A stretch of DNA of 9,596 nt, from IMG/VR virus record IMGVR_UViG_2706794686_000013, one strand, 5' to 3'. Both the position numbers and the translations under genes were made by a program. The stretch is from a virus (taxonomy: Duplodnaviria; Heunggongvirae; Uroviricota; Caudoviricetes). The notes below the pieces were generated by a model, which ran no database searches, was not told the origin of the DNA, and saw only the letters and a list, made by a program, of their open reading frames with translations. Shown here in pieces: positions 1-9,596 of the stretch (its first letter is position 1; the number at the start of each line of letters is the position of its first letter).

Positions 1-90
1 GAACAGGAGGGACAGCTGATAGAAACAGAAGCCACTGGAGCACCTCAAAAACACCATCATACACTAAATCAGTAAGTTGGCAGCATCACC
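1..90 (-). mobile_element. IS1 insertion sequence, terminal 90 bp (IRL end); element body continues beyond the window start
   Basis: Reverse complement of 1..90 reads ggtgatgctgccaacttactgatttagtgtatgatggtgtttttgaggtgctccagtggcttctgtttctatcagctgtccctcctgttc, which I recognise as the left end of IS1 (same end that abuts cat in Tn9). The InsA start (GTG gct tct gtt tct atc agc tgt ccc) lies at about 33..35 on the minus strand, reading out of the window. Match is from memory of IS1, not a database search. Confidence 0.9.
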
Positions 91-242
91 CCGCCACAGA
101 ACAATTATTGCTTTTGCCGTTGATGACAATAAAGTTTTTATCGCAGGCGTATACCACGGTGGGCAAATCTATGAAACCGATTTTTTATCCAGTGCACCGT
201 AAAACCCCCATCCTTCAGGGCGTGGCGGATATCAAACTTTGG

Positions 243-1325
243 TCATTTTCTCTGGCTGATCTTTACCGGATAACCATCCCGAAGATCAATTAAGTGCTCC
301 GGTTCAGAAGCAAACCATGCATAAGATCCCCACGCCAATTCTGGTATTGCCTTTTTAAAAGGCAGAGCACTTCTGTCCATAAATGCCGTAAGGAATGCAA
401 GATTTTTCTCGCTGAACCCAGCGTCAATAGCCAAATGAGTGAGAGTAACTTTTCGTTCCCTGTTTATAGGCCCATCTGTCGCAACTACTTCAGTGAAAAC
501 TACAAGCATGTCCGAACCCGTTCGGTCCTCTCCCAAATCAATCAAAATAATATCTGGAAGTGCTTTTGAGGCATCAATATTCAGCCCCAATGCTTTTGCC
601 AATACATCATCCTGAGCAACAACTTTATTCCCGGATTCAGACAACCAGAGCACAGTTGGATTCTTAAGAAAATTAGGAGCAAAAACTTCGATGACGGCCT
701 TAGCTATTGTACTTGACGGGCCCGGAGCTAAAGTTCTCTTCTCTCCATTTGGGAAAGTGACGACTACGGCATCAGCAGCAATCACTGCCCCTGATTTCAA
801 TAAACGCAACCTAGCAAGAGCGGCTTTGTTCAAATGATTTTCTTGCCAGGAACTTATTGCACTCAGCAGCGAATCTCCTTCAAGCCCGGCATCAAAGAGT
901 GCTGCAAAAGAGCGATTCAAACTGTAACGAGGACGAGAGGATGTGGTGGGTATACCTTTACGCTCAACAATTGCATTGCAAGGTATTAGGCCATTTTTTA
1001 TAGTTTCATCACGTATTGGCTCACGCGTATTTTCCGCATACCATGCATCAGCAGGCCTTATCTTTTGTTTAGAGAAAGTCATCTTTACCCAGCTTTCTCT
1101 GGACGCATCATCAGTAAGAGCAGCCTGCGAATCTCCCATACTTACAACCTGGCTGGGCCTTATCCATCGCCCCAGCCCCTCAACCGCACCAGCATAAAAC
1201 ATGACAAAAATTGTTTTTGCAGCTATTTCCCGAATTAAATATCCACGATTCTCAGTCCCTTCAGGGAAAATTAATTGTAATCTTTCCCGGATAACATTCA
1301 ATGGGGGAACAACAGGCAGATTCAT
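243..1325 (-). CDS. Putative restriction endonuclease partner of the adjacent methyltransferase (type II R-M R subunit, inferred from context)
   Basis: 360-aa ORF whose ATG overlaps the stop of the upstream methyltransferase by 4 nt (ATGA at 1322..1325), so translationally coupled. GGAG lies about 10 nt upstream of the ATG. No catalytic motif confidently identified by eye (possible hhhExK-like strand at NAIVERK); assignment is by genomic context and size only. Confidence 0.45.
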   Translation of the reverse strand: MNLPVVPPLNVIRERLQLIFPEGTENRGYLIREIAAKTIFVMFYAGAVEGLGRWIRPSQVVSMGDSQAALTDDASRESWVKMTFSKQKIRPADAWYAENTREPIRDETIKNGLIPCNAIVERKGIPTTSSRPRYSLNRSFAALFDAGLEGDSLLSAISSWQENHLNKAALARLRLLKSGAVIAADAVVVTFPNGEKRTLAPGPSSTIAKAVIEVFAPNFLKNPTVLWLSESGNKVVAQDDVLAKALGLNIDASKALPDIILIDLGEDRTGSDMLVVFTEVVATDGPINRERKVTLTHLAIDAGFSEKNLAFLTAFMDRSALPFKKAIPELAWGSYAWFASEPEHLIDLRDGYPVKISQRK

Positions 1326-3154
1326 GCAATCATCACTCCATAGAAACCAGCGATAGTTCTCTCAATAATCCGTCTGTGGACGCCAGCATCAATTAACGAT
1401 TGAATCTCCATCACCTGCTCCAGAGAAGGCAACGGGATTGAATTCAATTCATAGGCCGAAACAGCAACACTTCCGCTTATACACCTGAACGCCCGATCGA
1501 CAACATGCGAATTAAGTAGCATATCAATAACATCAGGGCGAACCGCAGAGAACAATCCGTTTGAATATACAATATTAATATGGTTTTCAACTACTACGCC
1601 ACCAGTTTCATCTATAAATCCCTGAGGTAAAATTGCCGCTAAAATCCTTCTGTCCTGTTCCTTCGATGTTGTCCGCTGAACAAGCACACATTCAGATTTT
1701 GTCACAAGGAAACCCTGTTGTGGGGTTATATCGATATAGGGAACATGATTTTTTCTGTCTGCACTAAAACGAAAACCAGCTGAAGTTATTGATTCCGCCC
1801 AGACTAATGGGTAGCTATTTTTTCCTTTCGTCGTACGCAACTGCGACTTAAATCGATTCCAGACTAACTGACCTGTAGAGACTGAGTATCCCAGATCAGC
1901 TAAACGCGTAGACATCTGTTTTAATACATTAAGAAAACAGGCATCATCTTTAACGCGTGGCAAAAGCCACGTTGCTCCACCTTTTTCTATATCAACATTA
2001 CCTATTTTCTCAATTTTTGCTTTGTTCAACCCCTTAGGGACAAGTGAGGATACCTGGGCCCGAACTTTATGTTCTCCCGCCTTGAATGCTGTCAACATTG
2101 TTTCCTGGAGAACATCGTCAAAGACCCCATCCCTGTCAGTGACGAAATCAAGGGCATACGGAGTAGTTTTTTCGGTCAAAAGGGTTCGCAGCGCGGTGAA
2201 ATACTGCCCACCAAGAAAAGAAGTTGGCGTAAGAAATGCAATAACTCCTGTTTTCTCTTTAACCATGCGAACAGCTAAGTCGGTGAACAATCCATATAGA
2301 TTTGCATGACCAAATAACGAACGAGAATATTTTTCTCTCGTTTTAATATCGAGAGTGACACGTCCGTAAGGCGGATTCCCTACCACAAGATCATAACCAG
2401 AAAATTTATCTTGCTGAAGCGCATCAGCAACAATAATTGTATCTTCAGGCAATCTACGTTTTACCTTTACACATAGTGGCATTAGTACAGATTCGAGCAA
2501 TACCAAACTCATCCAAGCCGCAAATGGATCGATCTCTATCCCCTTTAAACGACGACTGATTCTCCTCAACATCCATTCAGGGGAAGACCCCTTGTCTTTT
2601 TTTAACATTCGAATGGCTACTGGTGCCAAAAATGCACCGCCACCACACGCAGGATCAATAACCGATGCATGAGAAAAATCAACACCAGACTTTTCAGCCA
2701 GGTCCAAGAGACGCGCTACCAAAGGTGGGGGGGTATAGTAAGCCCCCAATTCCGAACGGTAAGCGGATGGCAGCATTACCGTATAAATTGACCCAATCAG
2801 ATATCCAGCGTCCTCCGCCGGAAATTGAGCAATAAGCTCACCTGTTCGTTCAGCGAGCTCGCGTGCATCACATGGAATGTCTTCTATGTAAACAGTGTGC
2901 GGTACTGCCCTCATTTTAATGCTGCTTTTTTGCTTTTTTGCAAGGGTATCCCAATATGCAGCTACGATGCTGAAGCAGTATGAGCGGGCATGCATCAACC
3001 TTGACTGCCCGGTTTTGTAATTGCCCGCATAACCTTTGGCCATGGCTTTACAAGTTTGATATCTTTCCAGATTAGAAAACTCATTATCTGTAAAAAAATC
3101 AAAATGTTGCACATTCATAATGTAAAATCCTAATGTATCAAACATGCGGGCCAT
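1322..3154 (-). CDS. N6-adenine-specific DNA methyltransferase, gamma-class motif order
   Basis: 610-aa ORF with AdoMet-binding motif I (IDPACGGGAFL) followed by catalytic motif IV (VVGNPPYG) and a motif X-like GAYYTPP upstream, then about 330 aa C-terminal to NPPY consistent with a target recognition domain. Start is ambiguous between ATG 3154, ATG 3145 and ATG about 3118 (the last has AGGA upstream). Confidence 0.85.
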   Translation of the reverse strand: MARMFDTLGFYIMNVQHFDFFTDNEFSNLERYQTCKAMAKGYAGNYKTGQSRLMHARSYCFSIVAAYWDTLAKKQKSSIKMRAVPHTVYIEDIPCDARELAERTGELIAQFPAEDAGYLIGSIYTVMLPSAYRSELGAYYTPPPLVARLLDLAEKSGVDFSHASVIDPACGGGAFLAPVAIRMLKKDKGSSPEWMLRRISRRLKGIEIDPFAAWMSLVLLESVLMPLCVKVKRRLPEDTIIVADALQQDKFSGYDLVVGNPPYGRVTLDIKTREKYSRSLFGHANLYGLFTDLAVRMVKEKTGVIAFLTPTSFLGGQYFTALRTLLTEKTTPYALDFVTDRDGVFDDVLQETMLTAFKAGEHKVRAQVSSLVPKGLNKAKIEKIGNVDIEKGGATWLLPRVKDDACFLNVLKQMSTRLADLGYSVSTGQLVWNRFKSQLRTTKGKNSYPLVWAESITSAGFRFSADRKNHVPYIDITPQQGFLVTKSECVLVQRTTSKEQDRRILAAILPQGFIDETGGVVVENHINIVYSNGLFSAVRPDVIDMLLNSHVVDRAFRCISGSVAVSAYELNSIPLPSLEQVMEIQSLIDAGVHRRIIERTIAGFYGVMIA

Positions 3155-3368
3155 AACATCTCATGGTGGCGCATAGCAAACTGGCCCGAAGAATATCACG
3201 CACCAAGTCGATCTCATAACCCGTTATGACAATAAATCTTTGTAGCTGAACTCACTTGGTGATTTGTCAATCATTCCTGGCCTCCAGTTCGTCCTGAATC
3301 TCTTTATCGAGTTCACCGTATTTGTTAGTCCTCATCACTCACGACTTGACTTCCAGAAATAACCTTGA

Positions 3369-3725
3369 TTATTCGGGGCTATATTTTGTCACCCTGCGTA
3401 TCCGCGCTTTCGCATTACGCTCAATCTGGATTAGCTTTTCTATATTTTTTCGCCTTTCCCGCTCCTCCTGGCGCAAGAGCCTTACATCATCTGCCAGTCT
3501 GGTTTCTCTTTTCGCCACAGAGAGCATCCAGTCAAATGGCTCCACAACTGCACCGCAAATTTTACAGCGGACCTGACGCTCTTTTTCGTCAACCCGGACA
3601 GAAGCGTGATGGCAATATGGTCTTTCCGATGGCTCATAAAGAAAATTAACCTGATTACGAGGGTTATCCTCTTTTACCGGAAATAAAACAATATTGCTTA
3701 ACTCATCTTCTGGTTTTATTTCCAT
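3369..3725 (-). CDS. Hypothetical prophage protein; possible Cys/His zinc-ribbon followed by a basic coiled-coil tail
   Basis: Track ORF 3369..3782 begins at a GTG; an in-frame ATG at 3723..3725 (MEIKPEDEL...) has a strong SD (aggagaggag) 5-8 nt upstream and is preferred. Contains CHH...x14...CKIC and an Arg/Glu-rich C-terminus (RLLRQEERERRKNIEKLIQIERNAKARIRR). Same strand and tight packing with neighbouring genes. Confidence 0.5.
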   Translation of the reverse strand: MEIKPEDELSNIVLFPVKEDNPRNQVNFLYEPSERPYCHHASVRVDEKERQVRCKICGAVVEPFDWMLSVAKRETRLADDVRLLRQEERERRKNIEKLIQIERNAKARIRRVTKYSPE

Positions 3726-3782
3726 GCTCCTCTCCTTTGATGCGAATGCCAGCGGTAATTGAAGCCTGATAGCTAATTTCAC

Positions 3783-4205
3783 TCACAGTACCGCCTCCTG
3801 AAAATCACCCTGATAGAAAGCCGGTACACGCTGCATAACTTCACTCTTCCGGCACTCGCGACAGATTATGTTCTGATGTCTGTCGTAGCGGCGTATTTCT
3901 CCGTCCGGTAATGACCAGATAAGGTCCGGATCAACCACAGATGGTTTCTTCAGCTTTGCCCTCGAGAGTTTTTTGCGGGCGTTTTGCCAGTCCTTACGAG
4001 CCTGTTCAGACGGGAATAACCCGTAGCCAGAGTTGTATACATCCCCACTGGCAACCAGCTCTCTGGCGAGAACGCTTATTAAATATCTTGTCGCCCCGGT
4101 TTTAGCTTCCAGTTGTCGTAACGTCTCGCGCCCACTCTGGCGTACGAGTTCAACAACCTGCCCCTTAATTTTTTCCCGCTCTTCCTGTGTAAATACTTTT
4201 GCCAT
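3783..4205 (-). CDS. Hypothetical prophage protein (CxxC-containing)
   Basis: Track ORF 3783..4220 starts at TTG; the in-frame ATG at 4203..4205 (MAKVFTQEERE...) with a GGGGG run about 6 nt upstream is preferred. 15-nt spacer from the upstream gene stop (4221..4223). Contains ICRECRK. No family recognised. Confidence 0.5.
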   Translation of the reverse strand: MAKVFTQEEREKIKGQVVELVRQSGRETLRQLEAKTGATRYLISVLARELVASGDVYNSGYGLFPSEQARKDWQNARKKLSRAKLKKPSVVDPDLIWSLPDGEIRRYDRHQNIICRECRKSEVMQRVPAFYQGDFQEAVL

Positions 4206-4220
4206 AAGCGCCCCCGGCAA

Positions 4221-4946
4221 TCACTTTTCCGACACAATACGACCGGAGGAATCGACAATCTGTCGAACAATATCCCGGTGCTTGTTCAGCTCCCGCAACG
4301 CGGCGCAGACACGCTCCCACTTCTGGACATGACTTTTCGCCCGACGCAGTTCGCGGTTTGCCATATGCAGCGATGGTAAAACCAGGTCATCCGCTTGCGT
4401 TTCGGTGAACGATGGCAACGACTGCACAATGTCCGCCACAGTTTCTGTTTTAATTTCTTCCTGTGTTGCAGCTTCCTGTACCGGTAACGCAACACCTGCT
4501 GGCTGAGGAAAGACTTTACCATCCGTTTCCGCTATGGATGCGGCTTTCGGCTCTGCCGGTAAATCAGCGCCCGGTATGCAGTACCGAAATTTACCGCCCT
4601 GATTCACGCGAATCAGACGCCCTTTGCTGATTGCCATGGCCAGCGATGAATTCGCCCGGCGGGAGGTAATCCCGAACATCAGTGCCAGCTCATCCGCCGT
4701 TTGTGGGCCATGTTGTTCAATCGCCTCAGTCAGCATTTGCGCTGTCACTTTCGGTACCGGTGACACTGGTTCACTTTCACCAGCCTGAATCAGCCACCAC
4801 ATCGAACCCTTGTTATCCGCTTCACCACGGCGCTTCAGTTTCCACAGTTCGTTGACCGCATCTTCACGGCTGATTCCAAGGCGGGACGCCACCACATGTG
4901 AAGAGGCTCTTTTCAGTGCTTTCAGTGCGTCAAATACAGTTTCCAT
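4221..4946 (-). CDS. Hypothetical prophage protein (acidic, Pro/Ala-rich central linker)
   Basis: Track ORF 4221..4964 starts at TTG; ATG at 4944..4946 ([12 protein letters not shown]...) with GGAGGA 8 nt upstream is preferred. Lies 21 nt downstream of the DnaC-like gene stop in the same operon. No family recognised with confidence. Confidence 0.55.
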
Positions 4947-4967
4947 TAAAACATCCTCCAACAAAAA

Positions 4968-5465
4968 TTACTTCACAACTCCCGGAAAGCTGACATTTGA
5001 ACGCCAGCTATCCCAGTTAAACGTCACCCACCGACAACCGTTCATGGTCATGCGGTCCATAATCCTCTCACCAAGAAGCGTGCTCATTGCGGCATGATTC
5101 AGGTTTGTTAACATCCCGACACTGCACAGTGATGCTGTCCGGCGATCAATTATCTGGTGCAATACCACCTGCTCGTTTTTCGTCTCCCGCTGAATGCCTA
5201 TTTCATCCAGGACCAGCAAATCAACCCCGCAAAGCTCCTGTAAAAATTTTTCACCGGATTTGCCGTTGTCGTAGCTGTCATGCAACACGCTCATGACATC
5301 AGACTCGGTGACGATAATCACGCTGCGCCCCTTCGCCATCAGCCGGTTACCCATCGCCGCTGCAAGGTGATTTTTCCCGGTGCCGGTTTTACCGCTGAAC
5401 ACAAAATTCGTGCACCCGGTCATCAGTTCGTCAGCTATGGATTTGGCCTGGCTCAGCGCGTATTT
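4968..5465 (-). CDS. DnaC-like helicase loader / phage replication protein P-analogue (AAA+ ATPase), 5' end lost in N-run
   Basis: Visible portion reads ...KYALSQAKSIADELMTGCTNFVFSGKTGTGKNHLAAAMGNRL..., with the Walker A SGKTGTGKNHLAAA that closely matches E. coli DnaC (SGKPGTGKNHLAAA), and a Walker B-like LLVLDEIG. The frame is open right up to the N-run at 5466, so the true start is inside the unresolved block. Confidence 0.85.
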   Translation of the reverse strand, partial: KYALSQAKSIADELMTGCTNFVFSGKTGTGKNHLAAAMGNRLMAKGRSVIIVTESDVMSVLHDSYDNGKSGEKFLQELCGVDLLVLDEIGIQRETKNEQVVLHQIIDRRTASLCSVGMLTNLNHAAMSTLLGERIMDRMTMNGCRWVTFNWDSWRSNVSFPGVVK

Positions 5466-5686
5466 NNNNNNNNNNNNNNNNNNNNNNNNNNNNNNNNNNN
5501 NNNNNNNNNNNNNNNNNNNNNNNNNNNNNNNNNNNNNNNNNNNNNNNNNNNNNNNNNNNNNNNNNNNNNNNNNNNNNNNNNNNNNNNNNNNNNNNNNNNN
5601 NNNNNNNNNNNNNNNNNNNNNNNNNNNNNNNNNNNNNNNNNNNNNNNNNNNNNNNNNNNNNNNNNNNNNNNNNNNNNNNNNNNNNN
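5466..5686. other. Unresolved/masked bases (221 N)
   Basis: Continuous run of n. Covers the 3' end of the O-like gene and the 5' end of the DnaC-like gene; ORF-track residues shown as X are not real. Confidence 1.
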
Positions 5687-6673
5687 TACCGGGAGCAACC
5701 AGGGGTTTTCAAAATTCCGGTCCGGCCCAAAAAACGTCGTCGCTCGCTGAACAAATTCCGTTCCCGCTTTCCCGGTCGCCGCCAGGTATCTCGCGTAACG
5801 CCTCACACCATCCAGCATGGTCTCTGGTGGCACCCCCTCGCGCAATCTGGCCTTCCAGGCACTGAATGCGGATTTCTTCGGGTTTGCCCCGGCACGCAAC
5901 GGGTATTCCCGCCAGACCTGTTCGAACACATCCGGATAATCCACTCGTCCCACAGGCTGCCCGGTGTTTTCCGGGGCTACCCGATCGGCTTCCCGCTGAA
6001 TGGCGGAATCGGCTTCAGGCTGCTGCAGTTGGAGTGATTGCTCCGGCCTTGCGGTCATCACCTGCTGCACAGCGCCCGAATCGGCTTTCAGCGCATACGC
6101 TGAATCGGCTTCCGGTGTCGAGCCTGCTGGCTGACCAGGATTGACGGTCTGAACATCCCCTGCCTGGTTCGTGGCGTTTTTTACGCCATGGACCATAGTG
6201 TTTTGATCTTCTTTATCTGTATCTTTATCTGTATCTGTCGTGACTCGTCGTGACATGTGCGTGACATTTCGTGACGCGCCGTGACAATCGCCATTTTGTT
6301 CCCGCTTTCTTTCCCTCTCTCGCTGCGCCCTCTTGCGCTCTGCAGGAGATTTTGCGGTTTGCGAAATATTGCCGTTGTCCTCTTTAAGCACCTGGCGTTT
6401 TTCCCATCCAGTGATTAAATCACCATCAAGTACCCGCCCCTGCATCGTCTGCAAAATTGAATCAATTACCTCTTCTGTCACGTCGAGCGCACTTGCCAAA
6501 TCTTCTGTCGTGACATCAATGTGACCTCGCGTGACATTTCGTGACGCGCTCACCAGGAGGTGGATATACACTGCCATCACTGTTGCAATTGGCTGCCCTG
6601 ACACCCTGGCAATTGTTCGCCACTTAGGGTCATTTGGCATGTCATGCCATAATCTGAGCCAGGCGTTAGCCAT
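5687..6673 (-). CDS. Phage replication initiation protein (lambda O-like role), 3' end lost in N-run
   Basis: ATG at 6671..6673 (MANAWLRLWHDMPNDPKWRTIARVSGQ...) with SD agaggtg upstream; the track start at 6679 is GTG. Sits immediately upstream of the DnaC-like gene and contains the iteron arrays within its coding sequence, as lambda O does. C-terminal region visible to 5687 (...FENPWLLPV) then runs into N. Confidence 0.6.
6211..6234 (+). repeat. Perfect 12-bp tandem duplication (ctttatctgtat x2) in an AT-rich stretch adjoining iteron array A
   Basis: 6211..6222 and 6223..6234 are identical; encodes the TDKDTDKD stretch of the initiator on the opposite strand. Confidence 0.8.
6240..6285. repeat. 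Iteron-like array A: five helically phased GTGAC(A) repeats
   Basis: GTGAC begins at 6240, 6250, 6261, 6271 and 6281 (spacing 10, 11, 10, 10 bp). Contains the 21-mer gcgtgacatttcgtgacgcgc at 6259..6279. Confidence 0.75.
6510..6549. repeat. Iteron-like array B: four helically phased GTGAC repeats plus one inverted copy upstream
   Basis: GTGAC begins at 6510, 6521, 6531 and 6541 (spacing 11, 10, 10 bp); inverted GTCAC at 6477..6481. The exact 21-mer gcgtgacatttcgtgacgcgc recurs at 6529..6549, 270 bp from the copy in array A. Confidence 0.75.
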
Positions 6674-6744
6674 ACTCACCTCTTCTGATACCGAATCTTT
6701 TTACTCACGAGTTGCCGGGAGCGATTCGATATGGCTATTGTCAG

Positions 6745-7170
6745 TCAATGTACTGCCACAGCATTTCCTGCCGGGCCACCACGGTTCATCTGATTGAAAC
6801 CGGCGATTGCCACTGCGACAAAATCATCAGCGTCTCTCACCAGTCGTTCATGCGTCTCCACCAGTTCCCGAAAATAAGCTGAACTGTGGCTGCGCATTCG
6901 AGCCACCAGCGGAGGTGGCATTGCCCTTTCGATCGCAGGTAACAACGCCTGAATTTTTTCAACAGCGTCAGGGGTGTCTTTATCCAGCCAACGGAAAATC
7001 TTTTGGGTGTTGAGATAAAGCGTGTTGTGCTTGCTGTCGTTATGCAGAACCGGAAACGTCATTCCCAGTTCGAAATAAACCCTGGTTATTTCAGCTGCCG
7101 GAACTTTTTCACCGTCCGGATGCGCCCAGGCTTTCATCGCCATGCGGATGTGTTCATGCTTGATTTTCAT
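6745..7170 (-). CDS. ydaT: YdaT-like protein (CII-like regulator position in a Rac-type immunity region)
   Basis: 141-aa ORF starting MKIKHEHIRMAMKAWAHPDGEK..., which I associate with the YdaT family of Rac-like prophages (recall, unverified). Sits between the cro-like gene and the replication initiator. Its ATG overlaps the cro-like stop (ATGA at 7167..7170); GGGGG SD upstream. Confidence 0.5.
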   Translation of the reverse strand: MKIKHEHIRMAMKAWAHPDGEKVPAAEITRVYFELGMTFPVLHNDSKHNTLYLNTQKIFRWLDKDTPDAVEKIQALLPAIERAMPPPLVARMRSHSSAYFRELVETHERLVRDADDFVAVAIAGFNQMNRGGPAGNAVAVH

Positions 7171-7420
7171 GAATCAACCCCCGCCGATGGTTGTGTGTTA
7201 GCCTGAAACTCAGCAGGCAAGCCGTCAGTTGGGTTGGGGTAGGTTTTACTGTCAATCTCATGTGGGGTCACCACCCATCCCGTTGCTTCACACCAACGTA
7301 ATATTTTTTCTCCTGTAAGTTTTGCACGCCCCGTTATAACGTGGCTGACCATCCCTTGGGATGCGCCAACAATCTCAGCAAATGAACTCTGGGTTATATG
7401 AAAATGATGCAAATATTCTC
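7167..7420 (-). CDS. Cro/YdaS-like HTH regulator, 5' end lost in N-run
   Basis: Visible C-terminal 83 aa: EYLHHFHITQSSFAEIVGASQGMVSHVITGRAKLTGEKILRWCEATGWVVTPHEIDSK... The helix-turn-helix (SSFAEIVGAS-QGMVSHV) is typical of Cro/XRE. No in-frame ATG before the N-run, so the start is in the masked block. First gene of the leftward operon. Confidence 0.6.
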
Positions 7421-7717
7421 NNNNNNNNNNNNNNNNNNNNNNNNNNNNNNNNNNNNNNNNNNNNNNNNNNNNNNNNNNNNNNNNNNNNNNNNNNNNNNNN
7501 NNNNNNNNNNNNNNNNNNNNNNNNNNNNNNNNNNNNNNNNNNNNNNNNNNNNNNNNNNNNNNNNNNNNNNNNNNNNNNNNNNNNNNNNNNNNNNNNNNNN
7601 NNNNNNNNNNNNNNNNNNNNNNNNNNNNNNNNNNNNNNNNNNNNNNNNNNNNNNNNNNNNNNNNNNNNNNNNNNNNNNNNNNNNNNNNNNNNNNNNNNNN
7701 NNNNNNNNNNNNNNNNN
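7421..7717. other. Unresolved/masked bases (297 N)
   Basis: Continuous run of n covering the 5' ends of both divergent regulator genes and the whole intergenic operator/promoter region between them. Confidence 1.
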
Positions 7718-8090
7718 ACAAGGGGCGGTAAGTCACTACCTAAATGGTCAAACCCCACTAAACCTTGAGGCTGTTCTAAAGTTTGCTGGCTTACTGAAAG
7801 TTCCCCCTGAGTCAATCAGGCCAGACATGGTAGATTTGCTGCAAATTGCAAGGATGTATTGTCGAGAACCACAGCAAGATAACATAGTCGCATTACCAGC
7901 AGACACAGAACAAACAGAGGATGAACTACCGTTTGCCGTAGAGCCGATGGAACGAGATTTAATCCATACGTTCAGAGCTTTTCCGAAAGAAGATCAAGAA
8001 CACATGCTTCAGGAGATGAAAGATAAAAAAGAATCAATGGATCGTACGGTTGCGCGGTGGTTAGCTGCACAAAAAGGCCGTCGCGCCTAA
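7718..8090 (+). CDS. HTH repressor-like regulator (CI/RacR-position; possible PaaR-type regulator of the downstream toxin-antitoxin pair), 5' end lost in N-run
   Basis: Visible 123 aa begin mid-HTH (QGAVSHYLNGQTPLNLEAVLKFAGLLKVPPE...), a recognition-helix signature of XRE-family repressors. Divergent to the cro-like gene. Stop at 8088..8090, only 19 nt before the antitoxin start. No S24 peptidase-like C-terminal domain seen. Confidence 0.6.
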
Positions 8091-8109
8091 ATCAGAGGAG
8101 ATATGTAAA

Positions 8110-8304
8110 ATGAGTACAGTCCTTTCCCCAATGGTTTCAGAATTTGAGACAGTTGAGCAAGAAAATAGTTACAACGAATGGCTGCGGGCCAAAGTAGCAG
8201 CAAGCCTCGCGGATCCCCGCCCGGCGATTCCGCATGATGAGGTAATGGCGGAAATGGAACAAATTATTGCCCAAATTGCTGCTGCAACTCACAGAGGTGA
8301 ATAA
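8110..8304 (+). CDS. paaA: Type II antitoxin, ParE-associated (PaaA-like)
   Basis: 64-aa ORF with GAGGAG SD 9 nt upstream. Its stop overlaps the toxin ATG (TAATG at 8302..8306), the classic antitoxin-toxin arrangement. Sequence (SPMVSEFETVEQENSYNEWLRAKVAASLADPRPAIPHDEV) resembles my recollection of the PaaA2 antitoxin of E. coli O157 prophages (unverified). Confidence 0.65.
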   Translation: MSTVLSPMVSEFETVEQENSYNEWLRAKVAASLADPRPAIPHDEVMAEMEQIIAQIAAATHRGE

Positions 8305-8594
8305 TGTTACCCGTTTTATGGCTACCATCTGCTCGTGATGATTTGCGCCAGATCGTAGCCTACATAGCTAAAGAAAATCCCGCGGCAGCACGCAGAATGA
8401 AAATTCGAATTGAAACATCCGTTTTGCCGCTCACAGAGCATCCTTACCTGTATCCTCCAAGCGAGCGAGTTCTTGGTCTTCGTGAAATTGTAACTCATCC
8501 TAACTACATCATCCTTTACCGAGTAACAGCATCAAGCATAGAAGTAGTAAATATTGTGCATTCTCGAAGACAGTATCCAGGCAAAAACAGTTAA
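8304..8594 (+). CDS. parE: ParE/RelE-family toxin
   Basis: 96-aa ORF (MLPVLWLPSARDDLRQIVAYIAKENPAAARRMKIRIE...LGLREIVTHPNYIILYRVTASSIEVVNIVHSRRQYP) showing the conserved ParE/RelE pattern: W.P.A..DL..I..YI near the N-terminus and GLRE...nYiIlYRV...ieVvnIvH near the C-terminus. Confidence 0.85.
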   Translation: MLPVLWLPSARDDLRQIVAYIAKENPAAARRMKIRIETSVLPLTEHPYLYPPSERVLGLREIVTHPNYIILYRVTASSIEVVNIVHSRRQYPGKNS

Positions 8595-8610
8595 TTATTC
8601 CCGCCGACAG

Positions 8611-8634
8611 AACCACCTTAGGGTGGTTTTTTCT
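8611..8634 (+). terminator. Rho-independent terminator downstream of the toxin gene
   Basis: Stem aaccacc (8611..8617), loop ttag, stem ggtggtt (8622..8628), followed by a T-run (ttttttctt), 17 nt after the parE stop. Confidence 0.55.
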
Positions 8635-8647
8635 TGCCCCAACAAAA

Positions 8648-8695
8648 AACAATAGCGATGCTATTTACATCAAAAAAAAATAATGATGCTATTGT
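8648..8695. promoter_or_regulatory. Palindromic / direct-repeat element flanking an A9 tract (candidate operator-promoter for the downstream small genes)
   Basis: aacaatagc (8648..8656) is the exact reverse complement of gctattgtt (8687..8695); gatgctatt occurs twice in direct orientation either side of aaaaaaaaa; tttaca is -35-like. No convincing -10 hexamer at canonical spacing. Confidence 0.3.
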
Positions 8696-8874
8696 TTCAG
8701 GCGTCAACCCACCCCGCCCCACAGAATGCAGGGCAATACTTCGAGTTACCAGACAGTGGTCAGGGGTTAAGTAGCCAGCCCGAGGCGTAAGAACATGACG
8801 GCAGGGTTCAATCTTTAACTATGCAGCAGGTTTTTTGTTCCGCCACCCCGGCGTTAAGGGGAAATGAGGTCAGC

Positions 8875-9027
8875 ATGGATACTATCGATCTTGGCAACAA
8901 CGAATCTCTGGTGTGCGGCGTGTTCCCTAACCAGGATGGAACGTTTACCGCCATGACGTATACCAAAAGCAAAACGTTTAAAACCGAATCTGGCGCGCGT
9001 TGCTGGTTAGCCAGAAACACTGACTGA
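8875..9027 (+). CDS. Small hypothetical prophage protein (50 aa)
   Basis: ATG at 8875 with GAGG 5 nt upstream (MDTIDLGNNESLVCGVFPNQDGTFTAMTYTKSKTFKTESGARCWLARNTD). The track ORF starts earlier (8821) but that ATG lacks an SD. Reminiscent of tiny early-left proteins of Rac-like prophages; identity unverified. Confidence 0.45.
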   Translation: MDTIDLGNNESLVCGVFPNQDGTFTAMTYTKSKTFKTESGARCWLARNTD

Positions 9028-9038
9028 TGAGGCTGACG

Positions 9039-9404
9039 ATGGAATTTAAAGATTTACCGTCTGATGTACAGAAAACAGCAGCTCATACATTGCATTCTGT
9101 GCTGCGAGAAATCGGGAAAGATATTGCAAGCGAGCCAGCAAAAGATCTGGCCCGGAAAATCAAGACCGCTTTCGTTGAGCTTTATAATGTTGGCACTGAC
9201 TCTGAAACTGTCGAGACCAAGACCGTAAGTTCACCAATATTCTCACTTGAGCCAAGCGTATTATCAGGTGAAATATGCACCGAGATTTCCAGCGAACTGC
9301 TTCCGGTAATACGAGAAGCAATTCGCCGTCGCGGTTTGGATGGAAGTTATGATCATGACGTTCTGCAAGTTCTCAGGACAATGGTGACTTCACTGGGGAT
9401 TTGA
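9039..9404 (+). CDS. Hypothetical protein (121 aa)
   Basis: ATG at 9039 (MEFKDLPSDVQKTAAHTL...) with GAGG 6 nt upstream. An alternative ATG at 9027 overlaps the previous stop (TGATGA), which would indicate coupling. No family recognised. Confidence 0.5.
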   Translation: MEFKDLPSDVQKTAAHTLHSVLREIGKDIASEPAKDLARKIKTAFVELYNVGTDSETVETKTVSSPIFSLEPSVLSGEICTEISSELLPVIREAIRRRGLDGSYDHDVLQVLRTMVTSLGI

Positions 9405-9536
9405 TCCCTGCGTCCTCTAAGCTTTTGATATAGCGGTCCTCCAAGAAGCGGTAAATTTTGTCGAAATCATCTTTTCCCTCTGGTTTATTCAGAGGATTAC
9501 AGGACCCGTAAGTAGCGGCATACATTTCAACCGTTT

Positions 9537-9596
9537 GGTAATGACTCCAACTTATTGATAGTGTTTTATGTTCAGATAATGCCCGATGACTTTGTC
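9537..9596 (-). mobile_element. IS1 insertion sequence, terminal 60 bp (IRR end); element body continues beyond the window end
   Basis: 9537..9596 reads ggtaatgactccaacttattgatagtgttttatgttcagataatgcccgatgactttgtc, the reverse complement of the IS1 right end (...gacaaagtcatcgggcattatctgaacataaaacactatcaataagttggagtcattacc). Same orientation as the copy at 1..90. Confidence 0.9.
9552..9596 (-). CDS. insB: IS1 transposase InsB, C-terminal end (partial; rest beyond window)
   Basis: Minus-strand translation gives ...DKVIGHYLNIKHYQ followed by stop (TAA at 9552..9554), matching the known InsB C-terminus. Confidence 0.8.
   Translation of the reverse strand, partial: DKVIGHYLNIKHYQ

Follow-up and report, generated by a model that had tools for sequence, protein, structure and literature searches.

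How does a block of phage genes with its own replication module come to lie between two copies of one insertion sequence, and is such a block a replicon in the making or a piece of a decaying prophage? This question is raised by a window of 9,596 nucleotides (nt), the whole stretch of Caudoviricetes DNA filed as IMG/VR record IMGVR_UViG_2706794686_000013. Positions 1 to 90 and 9537 to 9596 of the window are the ends of directly repeated 768-bp copies of the insertion sequence (IS) IS1, and between them lie an initiator gene with internal iterons, a helicase loader gene, a restriction-modification (RM) pair, and a ParE toxin-antitoxin (TA) pair. A sequence-only reading had recognized both the IS1-bounded segment and these four modules, and our analysis recovered all of them; it had also taken them together for a plasmid-like maintenance set, which does not hold, as the gene order is the standard immunity and replication region of lambdoid phages, found in CP-933P, in a complete Escherichia coli prophage, and in phage genomes. 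With a probability of about 0.72, the segment, called the unit below, is what IS1 has left of a lambdoid prophage at the Qin locus of Shigella sonnei, namely its immunity and early-right (replication plus nin) core, with cargo that may help to keep it in place.

The unit can be placed on the chromosome. S. sonnei chromosomes that are 99.9 to 100% identical to the window hold the segment between two complete 768-bp IS1 copies, and the exact restriction endonuclease (RE), DNA methyltransferase (MTase), and ParE proteins carry the name of Shigella sonnei, the exact RE occurring in 4192 collection blocks. All 17 S. sonnei chromosomal loci examined (17/17) have a single copy of the unit at the same site, with ydfI on its left. 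No complete E. coli genome covers at least 80% of the window, which fits a Shigella origin combined with mosaicism. Two stretches of the window are masked with N; they were read from locus L062, and the genomes used are 99.9 to 100% identical to the window outside the masks. The true lengths of the masked stretches differ from those of the masks, so positions rightward of either mask are offset from the real locus. All features are collected in Table 1.

Table 1. Features of the window, in window coordinates, with lengths in amino acids (aa) and with the matches or remarks that bear on each; HTH, helix-turn-helix; IRL and IRR, left and right inverted repeats of IS1; OL and OR, left and right operators
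Feature	Position	Strand	Match or remark
Left IS1, IRL-side terminal 90 nt	1..90	-	Same as the final 90 nt of IS1 (768 bp) in L063
parE' remnant, codons 68-103 plus stop of a 103-aa ParE	92..202	+	Dead
Type II RE, BsuBI/PstI family, 360 aa	243..1325	-	PF06616 9e-45, PF17728 1e-30
N6-adenine DNA MTase, 610 aa	1322..3154	-	PF07669, PF02384 (N6_Mtase/Eco57I)
Zinc-ribbon protein, 118 aa, nin-region gene	3369..3725	-	phrog_1621 2e-54; weak Zn_Ribbon_TF match
DUF977/LygF/Ren-like exclusion protein, 140 aa	3783..4205	-	PF06163 3e-30; phrog_142
DUF1627 (YdaW-like) protein, 241 aa	4221..4946	-	PF07789 4e-93; 83% DNA identity to the Rac ydaW region
DnaC-type helicase loader "P"	4968..5465	-	C-terminal 165 codons seen; N-terminal 83 beneath mask 1
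Mask 1 (221 N)	5466..5686		Real stretch 333 bp: P 5' end, 6-bp spacer, O 3' end
Replication initiator O, 354 aa	5687..6673	-	Last 26 codons including stop beneath mask 1
Putative origin of replication (ori) within O	6165..6545	-	Iteron arrays, AT-rich stretch, palindrome
YdaT (CII analogue), 141 aa	6745..7170	-	PF06254; phrog_163 "CII-like activator"
Perfect predicted YdaT operator TTGATTTTCATGAATCAA	7160..7177		On the cro-stop/ydaT-start overlap
Cro/YdaS-like HTH regulator, 87 aa	7167..7420 (first codons beneath mask 2)	-	HTH_3; phrog_35
Mask 2 (297 N)	7421..7717		Real stretch 249 bp: cro start, three operators, divergent PR/PRM-like promoters, first 43 repressor codons
CI/PaaR-type repressor, 166 aa in full	7718..8090 (start beneath mask 2)	+	HTH_3 only, in Pfam
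PaaA2-type antitoxin, 64 aa	8110..8304	+	PDB 3ZBE/5CW7 PaaA2 1e-23; PF21217
ParE2-type toxin, 96 aa	8304..8594	+	PDB 5CW7 ParE2 7e-37
Two OL-type predicted operators AATAGCGATGCTATT, AATAATGATGCTATT	8651-8665, 8678-8692		Downstream of parE; OR motif
YdfA-like DUF1391 protein, 50 aa	8875..9027	+	PF07151; phrog_751
121-aa phage protein	9039..9404	+	phrog_33007 5e-80
3' portion of a phage gene (66 aa)	9373..9536	-	phrog_34441; disrupted by the right IS1 near codon 15
Right IS1, IRR-side first 60 nt	9537..9596	-	Identical to IS1 in L063

The closest guide to the interior of the unit is CP-933P, a cryptic prophage of E. coli O157:H7 EDL933, which has the same genes in the same order and orientation (paaR-paaA-parE on one side, ydaS-ydaT-O-P-DUF1627-DUF977 on the other), the proteins of the unit being mostly 77 to 95% identical to those of CP-933P. 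There, PaaR2, YdaS, and YdaT behave like CI, Cro, and CII, and the locus is bistable (Jurenas et al. 2021, PMC8630535). The corresponding CI/Cro/CII-type switch of the unit is central to our interpretation; neither this switch nor the parE' remnant at 92 to 202 had been listed in the sequence-only reading. The full 166-aa repressor, read from L062 (3172 to 3672), begins with a DNA-binding domain of the lambda CI type (PDB 1LMB, 3e-9, residues 2 to 81) rather than of the PaaR2 type, whereas its residues 103 to 166 (64 aa) are 56% identical to PaaR2, and its gene has the PaaR position, first before paaA-parE and divergent. It appears to be a chimeric, heteroimmune variant of the PaaR type. Because Pfam gives HTH_3 only and no S24 peptidase domain was found, RecA-mediated self-cleavage of this repressor is unlikely. 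Its opponent, the Cro-like protein, is just 36% identical to CP-933P YdaS, and YdaT is 81% identical to its CP-933P counterpart. The repressor gene is probably cotranscribed with paaA-parE, as in a switch of the CP-933P type.

The regulatory sites point in the same direction. Between the divergent repressor and cro genes lie three 15-bp palindromic OR-type sites, AATAGyGATrCTATT (L062 3686 to 3748, mask 2), and the unit has a further operator set downstream of parE, where CP-933P likewise has a PL promoter after parE2 (PMC8630535). Both prophages have a perfect YdaT site, of the published form TTGATTN6AATCAA (PMC9986795). In the near-identical genomes, a PRM-like TTCAAA-17-TAGAAT ends 7 nt ahead of the repressor ATG, which would fit an mRNA without a leader, such as those reported for paaR2 and lambda cI (PMC8630535); in this apparent lack of a leader, the repressor gene of the unit resembles that of CP-933P. 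The PR hexamers in these genomes are weak (4/6 and 4/6 by eye), and PR was not called by the promoter scan; a generic promoter and terminator scan gave fewer promoter-like matches than were found in shuffles and was uninformative. The operators of the unit are unlike the GTTTAGTAA-type repeats of CP-933P, which indicates that the two prophages would differ in immunity specificity.

The replication module is likewise that of a phage. O matches phrog_3729, "replication initiation protein," over its full length with an E value of 3e-250, PHROGs alone giving it a family while Pfam and NCBIfam give none. It is 96.6% identical to O of the deposited phage genome vB_EcoS-813R8, and its C-terminal half is 91% identical to CP-933P O, whereas the N-terminal domains of the two are unlike. 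CGTGAC occurs 9 times in the window, compared to 2.9 expected; none of 200 shuffles reaches 9, and all occurrences are inside 6239 to 6545. Array 1 (6509 to 6545) has four GTCAC(G) units, and array 2 (6239 to 6285) has five units with a period of ~10.5 bp. Array 2 adjoins an AT-rich stretch (6195 to 6238, 73% AT) that holds a 12-bp tandem repeat, TCTTTATCTGTA, and this stretch is abutted, in the O linker region, by a 31-nt palindrome (6165 to 6195; 13-bp stem; z = -5.1 versus shuffles). The lambda ori is likewise flanked by a palindrome. The putative ori also agrees with the lambda ori in layout, iterons followed by an AT-rich stretch (PMC3349717). Both arrays are kept base for base in the O gene of vB_EcoS-813R8 and of complete E. 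coli prophages and are absent from CP-933P O, whose N-terminal domain differs. Since the arrays covary with the N-terminal domain of O, this distribution supports the predicted assignment of the GTCACG arrays as putative O-binding iterons.

The loader was completed from L062. At 248 aa, it scores 499 bits against NF009043 (cutoff, 389) and 296 bits against the DnaC equivalog model, which is under the cutoff of that model, and it is 95% identical to the CP-933P loader. In vB_EcoS-813R8 (L066) and in L060, the same O and iterons occur with no DnaC-like loader or DUF1627 gene, DUF977 following directly after O. As some relatives with the same O and iterons do without it, the loader may be dispensable for this O type.

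If the unit is the core of a lambdoid prophage, how did it come to be bounded by IS1? Both copies run from IRR to IRL on the plus strand and are therefore direct repeats, with IRL and IRR present and InsA and InsB called. The full 768-bp left copy extends leftward past the window edge (InsA, HTH_Tnp_IS1, and DDE_Tnp_IS1 calls), and the full 768-bp right copy extends rightward. The two are identical at 768 of 768 positions in three genomes and one base apart in a fourth. At the left copy, the flanks are TTGTTATATG before IS1 and CCGCCACAG after it, with no target duplication, and the ydfI-ydfZ-ydfH-ydfG-dcp side of the Qin locus is joined by this IS1 directly to parE'. Because of the missing duplication and this direct joining, the left IS1 is a deletion endpoint. 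What was deleted can be judged from the remnant: the translation of parE' is 100% identical to ParE residues 68 to 103 of a complete prophage of E. coli FDAARGOS_943, so that parE' is the end of a second parDE pair whose ParD partner and 5' part are gone at the left IS1 junction; an intact parDE pair is found in complete E. coli prophage L001 (11538 to 12112). Besides this second parDE pair, the deletion took the late genes as well as ydfJ, and it brought the RM pair next to ydfI.

The right copy has a different origin. It shows a perfect 9-bp target duplication, CAACCGTTT, in L059, L062, and L063, and in silico excision of this IS1 with one copy of the duplication rebuilds a 66-aa phage gene. 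This IS1 arose by simple insertion within the small gene, and prophage DNA goes on past the insertion. Two intact direct IS1 copies around cargo are also the structure of Tn9, and a composite transposon of that kind could have moved in whole with its replication, RM, and TA cargo. We give this origin hardly any weight and rejected it on the duplication pattern: the outer flanks of the IS1 pair (..GTTATATG on the left, CAACCGTTT.. on the right) have no 9-bp duplication in common, therefore the block did not arrive by transposing as one unit, and the CAACCGTTT duplication spans the right IS1 alone. Moreover, the interior is collinear with prophage DNA past the right IS1, and the unit occurs at one locus only (the 17 S. 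sonnei loci) and on no plasmid (PLSDB). Unlike those of Tn9, its borders are one insertion and one deletion, and the boundaries of the unit are accidental.

Such borders are not surprising in this host. Shigella chromosomes have 229 to 348 IS insertions, 46 to 73% of which are IS1 (PMC7373316), and at the published IS1 density ~10 to 50 direct IS1 pairs no more than 9.5 kb apart are expected per genome by chance. Being bounded by IS1 is not distinguishing, since this density yields such short segments by chance. A third IS1 was found 8.2 kb leftward of the unit.

Where does the RM pair come from? The RE has BsuBI_PstI_RE_N (HTH) and BsuBI_PstI_RE domains that cover nearly the whole profiles, and it matches PADLOC REase_II PDLC03589 over its full length (3e-128). 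The MTase matches PADLOC MTase_II PDLC03338 over its full length (2e-300) and shows DPACGGG and NPPY motifs in its translation; the end of its gene shares 4 nt with the start of the RE gene, in an M-to-R operon. The pair is 99% DNA identical in the nin region of the complete lambdoid prophage of E. coli FDAARGOS_943, where it sits between the replication genes and parDE-DUF968-rusA-Q-lysis-terminase, and L060 likewise has it in the nin region, within a complete prophage that retains Q, lysis, and terminase genes. The pair is thus phage cargo of the nin region. In place of this pair, the nin region of CP-933P has a hydrolase gene and hokD, and IS1 on both sides is another difference from CP-933P. 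The phage collection contained relatives of the O and immunity region at 93 to 95% DNA identity but no close relative of the RM pair. The best match of the MTase in a search of genome contigs is 67% identical (Erwinia dacicola), with remoter matches in marine gammaproteobacteria and Burkholderia.

A comparable system is EcoGIII, a PstI-like RM system (CTGCAG) of Stx2 prophages, which also combines a BsuBI/PstI-family RE and an N6-adenine MTase as lambdoid cargo. The RE of the unit is only 27 to 28% identical to the BsuBI-like RE gene of Shiga toxin (Stx) phage records, a gene probably of the EcoGIII type, and the recognition sequence cannot be carried over at this distance. CTGCAG is found at 2 sites in the window compared to 2.2 expected, neither depleted nor enriched, so that no avoidance of this sequence was found. 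A literature search on the S. sonnei methylome gave nothing relevant by title or abstract, and a search by genome accession gave no papers.

The second cargo module, PaaA2-ParE2, belongs to the immunity region. The antitoxin is 77% and the toxin 86% identical to the CP-933P proteins, and the end of the antitoxin gene overlaps the toxin start at 8304. The two modules can be found apart. L065 (GCA_014628865.1) shares the loader-to-RE block at 99.8%, ending 4 bp before the same IS1 junction, with another cI/cro/ydaT/O set and no paaA-parE, while L077 (AATXGX010000137.1) shares the repressor-to-DUF977 block at 99.6% and has queH-hok-rem-Q where the RM pair would be. Because one relative has the RM pair without paaA-parE and another the reverse, the RM and TA modules assort independently. 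The sequence-only view of them as parts of a plasmid is further weakened by this, since they are phage cargo that assorts independently, the IS1 borders did not arise from mobilization, and no extrachromosomal copy was found in PLSDB.

How would such a core behave in the cell? In the resting state, the repressor would occupy OR and OL and keep the PR-like promoter off, so that O and the loader would be unmade and the ori unactivated. The replication module would then be silent and copied passively with the chromosome. Derepression of a nonexcisable lambda fragment is lethal by "replicative killing" (PMC3349717), and a firmly repressed state is therefore favored. The RM pair and PaaA2-ParE2 would act as "selfish cargo" of the prophage, so that cells losing the segment, for instance when the two identical direct IS1 copies recombine, would pay a penalty. 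A deletion product of this kind would be recognized by the junction ydfI..TTGTTATATG - IS1 - CAACCGTTTTATC... Jurenas et al. proposed that the TA locus limits rearrangements in the CP-933P immunity region (PMC8630535). In the unit, the penalty exerted by the cargo may help to explain why the core persists while neighboring prophage DNA erodes; this is the least certain step of our account, and retention by addiction is plausible but unproven.

The erosion itself is seen to the right of the unit. Beyond the right IS1 lies ynfF or leftover prophage DNA, depending on the strain. The ancestral layout on this side comprises Rha/Ash, another IS1, dicB, ydfE, an IS3-family element, and ynfE/F. The 1.3-kb Rha/Ash piece is bounded by a further direct IS1 (L075 10248 to 12958, right of the window) and is missing in some S. 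sonnei chromosomes, whereas others lack all DNA up to ynfF, L069, L068, and L072 being the loci concerned in the two kinds of loss. Because this outer flank is polymorphic, IS1-by-IS1 deletions do happen at this site. Where the outer DNA is deleted, the unit is intact in the S. sonnei loci examined, except for one internal deletion.

The same structure could also be a neutral leftover, retained for purely historical reasons because the clone dates back a few centuries, with no part played by the RM and TA modules. IS1-bounded short segments are expected by chance, the MTase deletion and possible frameshifts described below are tolerated, and the independent assortment of the two modules in L065 and L077 would be natural for passengers of this sort. 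We nonetheless consider it unlikely, although far from negligible. The homologous paaR2-paaA2-parE2 locus of CP-933P stabilizes an unstable plasmid, and addictive behavior was seen there (PMC8630535); nearly all assemblies examined encode RE, MTase, PaaA, and ParE at full length and without any difference from the window; and DNA outside the right IS1 was deleted repeatedly while the core was kept in the genomes seen, which are a biased sample.

Several observations weigh against the reading of the unit as a prophage core held in place by its cargo. S. sonnei is a young clone, and persistence of the core may only reflect the shortness of time. The loci were all retrieved through RE or ParE, a procedure to which genomes that lost the unit are invisible, and the masking hides the operators and promoters in the window, where this region was substituted from near-identical genomes. 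The most direct objection comes from the MTase gene, in which a C7 homopolymer (G7 on the plus strand, 2727 to 2733) varies between assemblies. It reads G6, frameshifting the MTase, in 2 of the 17 S. sonnei assemblies (L058 and L074), and in CP060117.1 (L073) an internal deletion of 1,847 bp (window 2734 to 4580) begins exactly at the G run. This deletion loses the MTase N terminus, the zinc-ribbon gene, DUF977, and half of DUF1627, and the RE stays full length (S62G). Behind the MTase variants there may be sequencing error, slippage, or a genuine loss of the enzyme. Should the losses be genuine, cells tolerate the RE in the absence of its MTase, which would mean that the pair is not an active addiction module.

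A bolder possibility is that RecA-mediated recombination between the IS1 copies frees a circle of ~10.3 kb, which replicates from the ori in the manner of lambda-dv and is retained by RM and ParE killing. The unit contains every cis and trans component of a lambda-dv-type replicon, the IS1 copies are direct and identical, and the O/ori module is essentially that of a deposited phage genome. Like lambda-dv, the unit has operators and promoters, a cro-type gene, a CII analogue, O with an internal ori, and a loader within ~3.5 kb, and lambda-dv1 carries the repressor gene as the unit does. Lambda-dv plasmids consist of the immunity and replication regions and replicate with cI silent (PMC3349717). 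The differences concern the loader (DnaC-like in the unit, not lambda P), the iterons (short GTCACG units at ~10.5-bp spacing in two arrays versus four 18- to 19-bp repeats in lambda), the size (9.5 kb with RM and TA cargo), the route of release, which would be IS1 recombination, and the state in which the unit is known here, as chromosomal DNA.

Rac offers a second precedent. It is also a cryptic lambdoid remnant, with ydaS-ydaT-ydaU-ydaV-ydaW, a DnaC-like YdaV, and a DUF1627 protein, YdaW, and its loader-DUF1627 DNA is 83% identical to that of the unit. When Rac is derepressed, its DNA increases as much as 9-fold compared with a distant marker on the chromosome, a rise that vanishes on normalization to a nearby one. 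Plasmids of the oriJ type are reportedly derived from the Rac prophage. Rac differs in that it keeps int/xis and excises site specifically, whereas the unit is without an integrase, and its repressor and O are of other types. Together with the bistability of the CP-933P switch, lambda-dv, the oriJ plasmids, and the copy rise of Rac speak for a replicating circle, but we hold it improbable. No plasmid in PLSDB matches over more than 30% of the unit, the partial matches being prophage regions of E. coli records, and all 17 S. sonnei loci show the unit in single copy beside ydfI. The circle would also bear its own repressor, and in lambda repressor control of PR stops O and P synthesis and transcriptional activation of the ori (PMC3349717, PMC3017604). 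Partition and multimer resolution functions are absent from the unit. A circle or a tandem duplication would have the junction right end (..CAACCGTTT) - IS1 - left end (CCGCCACAG..).

An excised circle would thus hold every part of the lambda-dv type, and to this extent the sequence-only description of a minimal replicon toolkit is apt, although this combination is not peculiar to plasmids. Nor would its fate be unusual, as that reading had it, because replication of an excised immunity-replication fragment is the classical situation of lambda-dv and of Rac oriJ; autonomous replication after excision is conceivable and mechanistically reasonable, not new in kind. In an extended form, the core would loop out occasionally via IS1, replicate as a circle in cells in which Cro/YdaS is ON, be held by RM and ParE killing, and reenter at any of >100 IS1 copies on the chromosome or on plasmids. 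We think this very improbable. Were it true, IS1 would have made a prophage remnant into a self-maintaining, relocatable mini-replicon, and insertion sequences would be seen to have a way of converting decaying prophages into addictive plasmids in a pathogen with hundreds of IS copies.

As the trimmed core of a Qin-locus prophage, the unit has a more modest interest. It is a clean natural core of the CP-933P type, with a predicted new chimeric repressor specificity, a distant RM pair of the PstI family, and IS1 erosion on both sides. The locus could serve to test whether RM and TA cargo slow IS-mediated genome reduction in Shigella.

The remaining genes of the unit are listed in Table 1; among them, the DUF977 protein is 90.5% identical to its CP-933P homologue. 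The unit also leaves a trace in draft S. sonnei assemblies, where 2158 of the 4192 RE-bearing blocks are contigs of 5 to 10 kb, many of them 9.2 to 9.8 kb. This clustering suggests that the inter-IS1 unit assembles as a separate contig. A second class of contigs, of 2 to 5 kb, would be explained by a repeat within the unit, probably in the loader/DUF1627 region that is common to other prophages.

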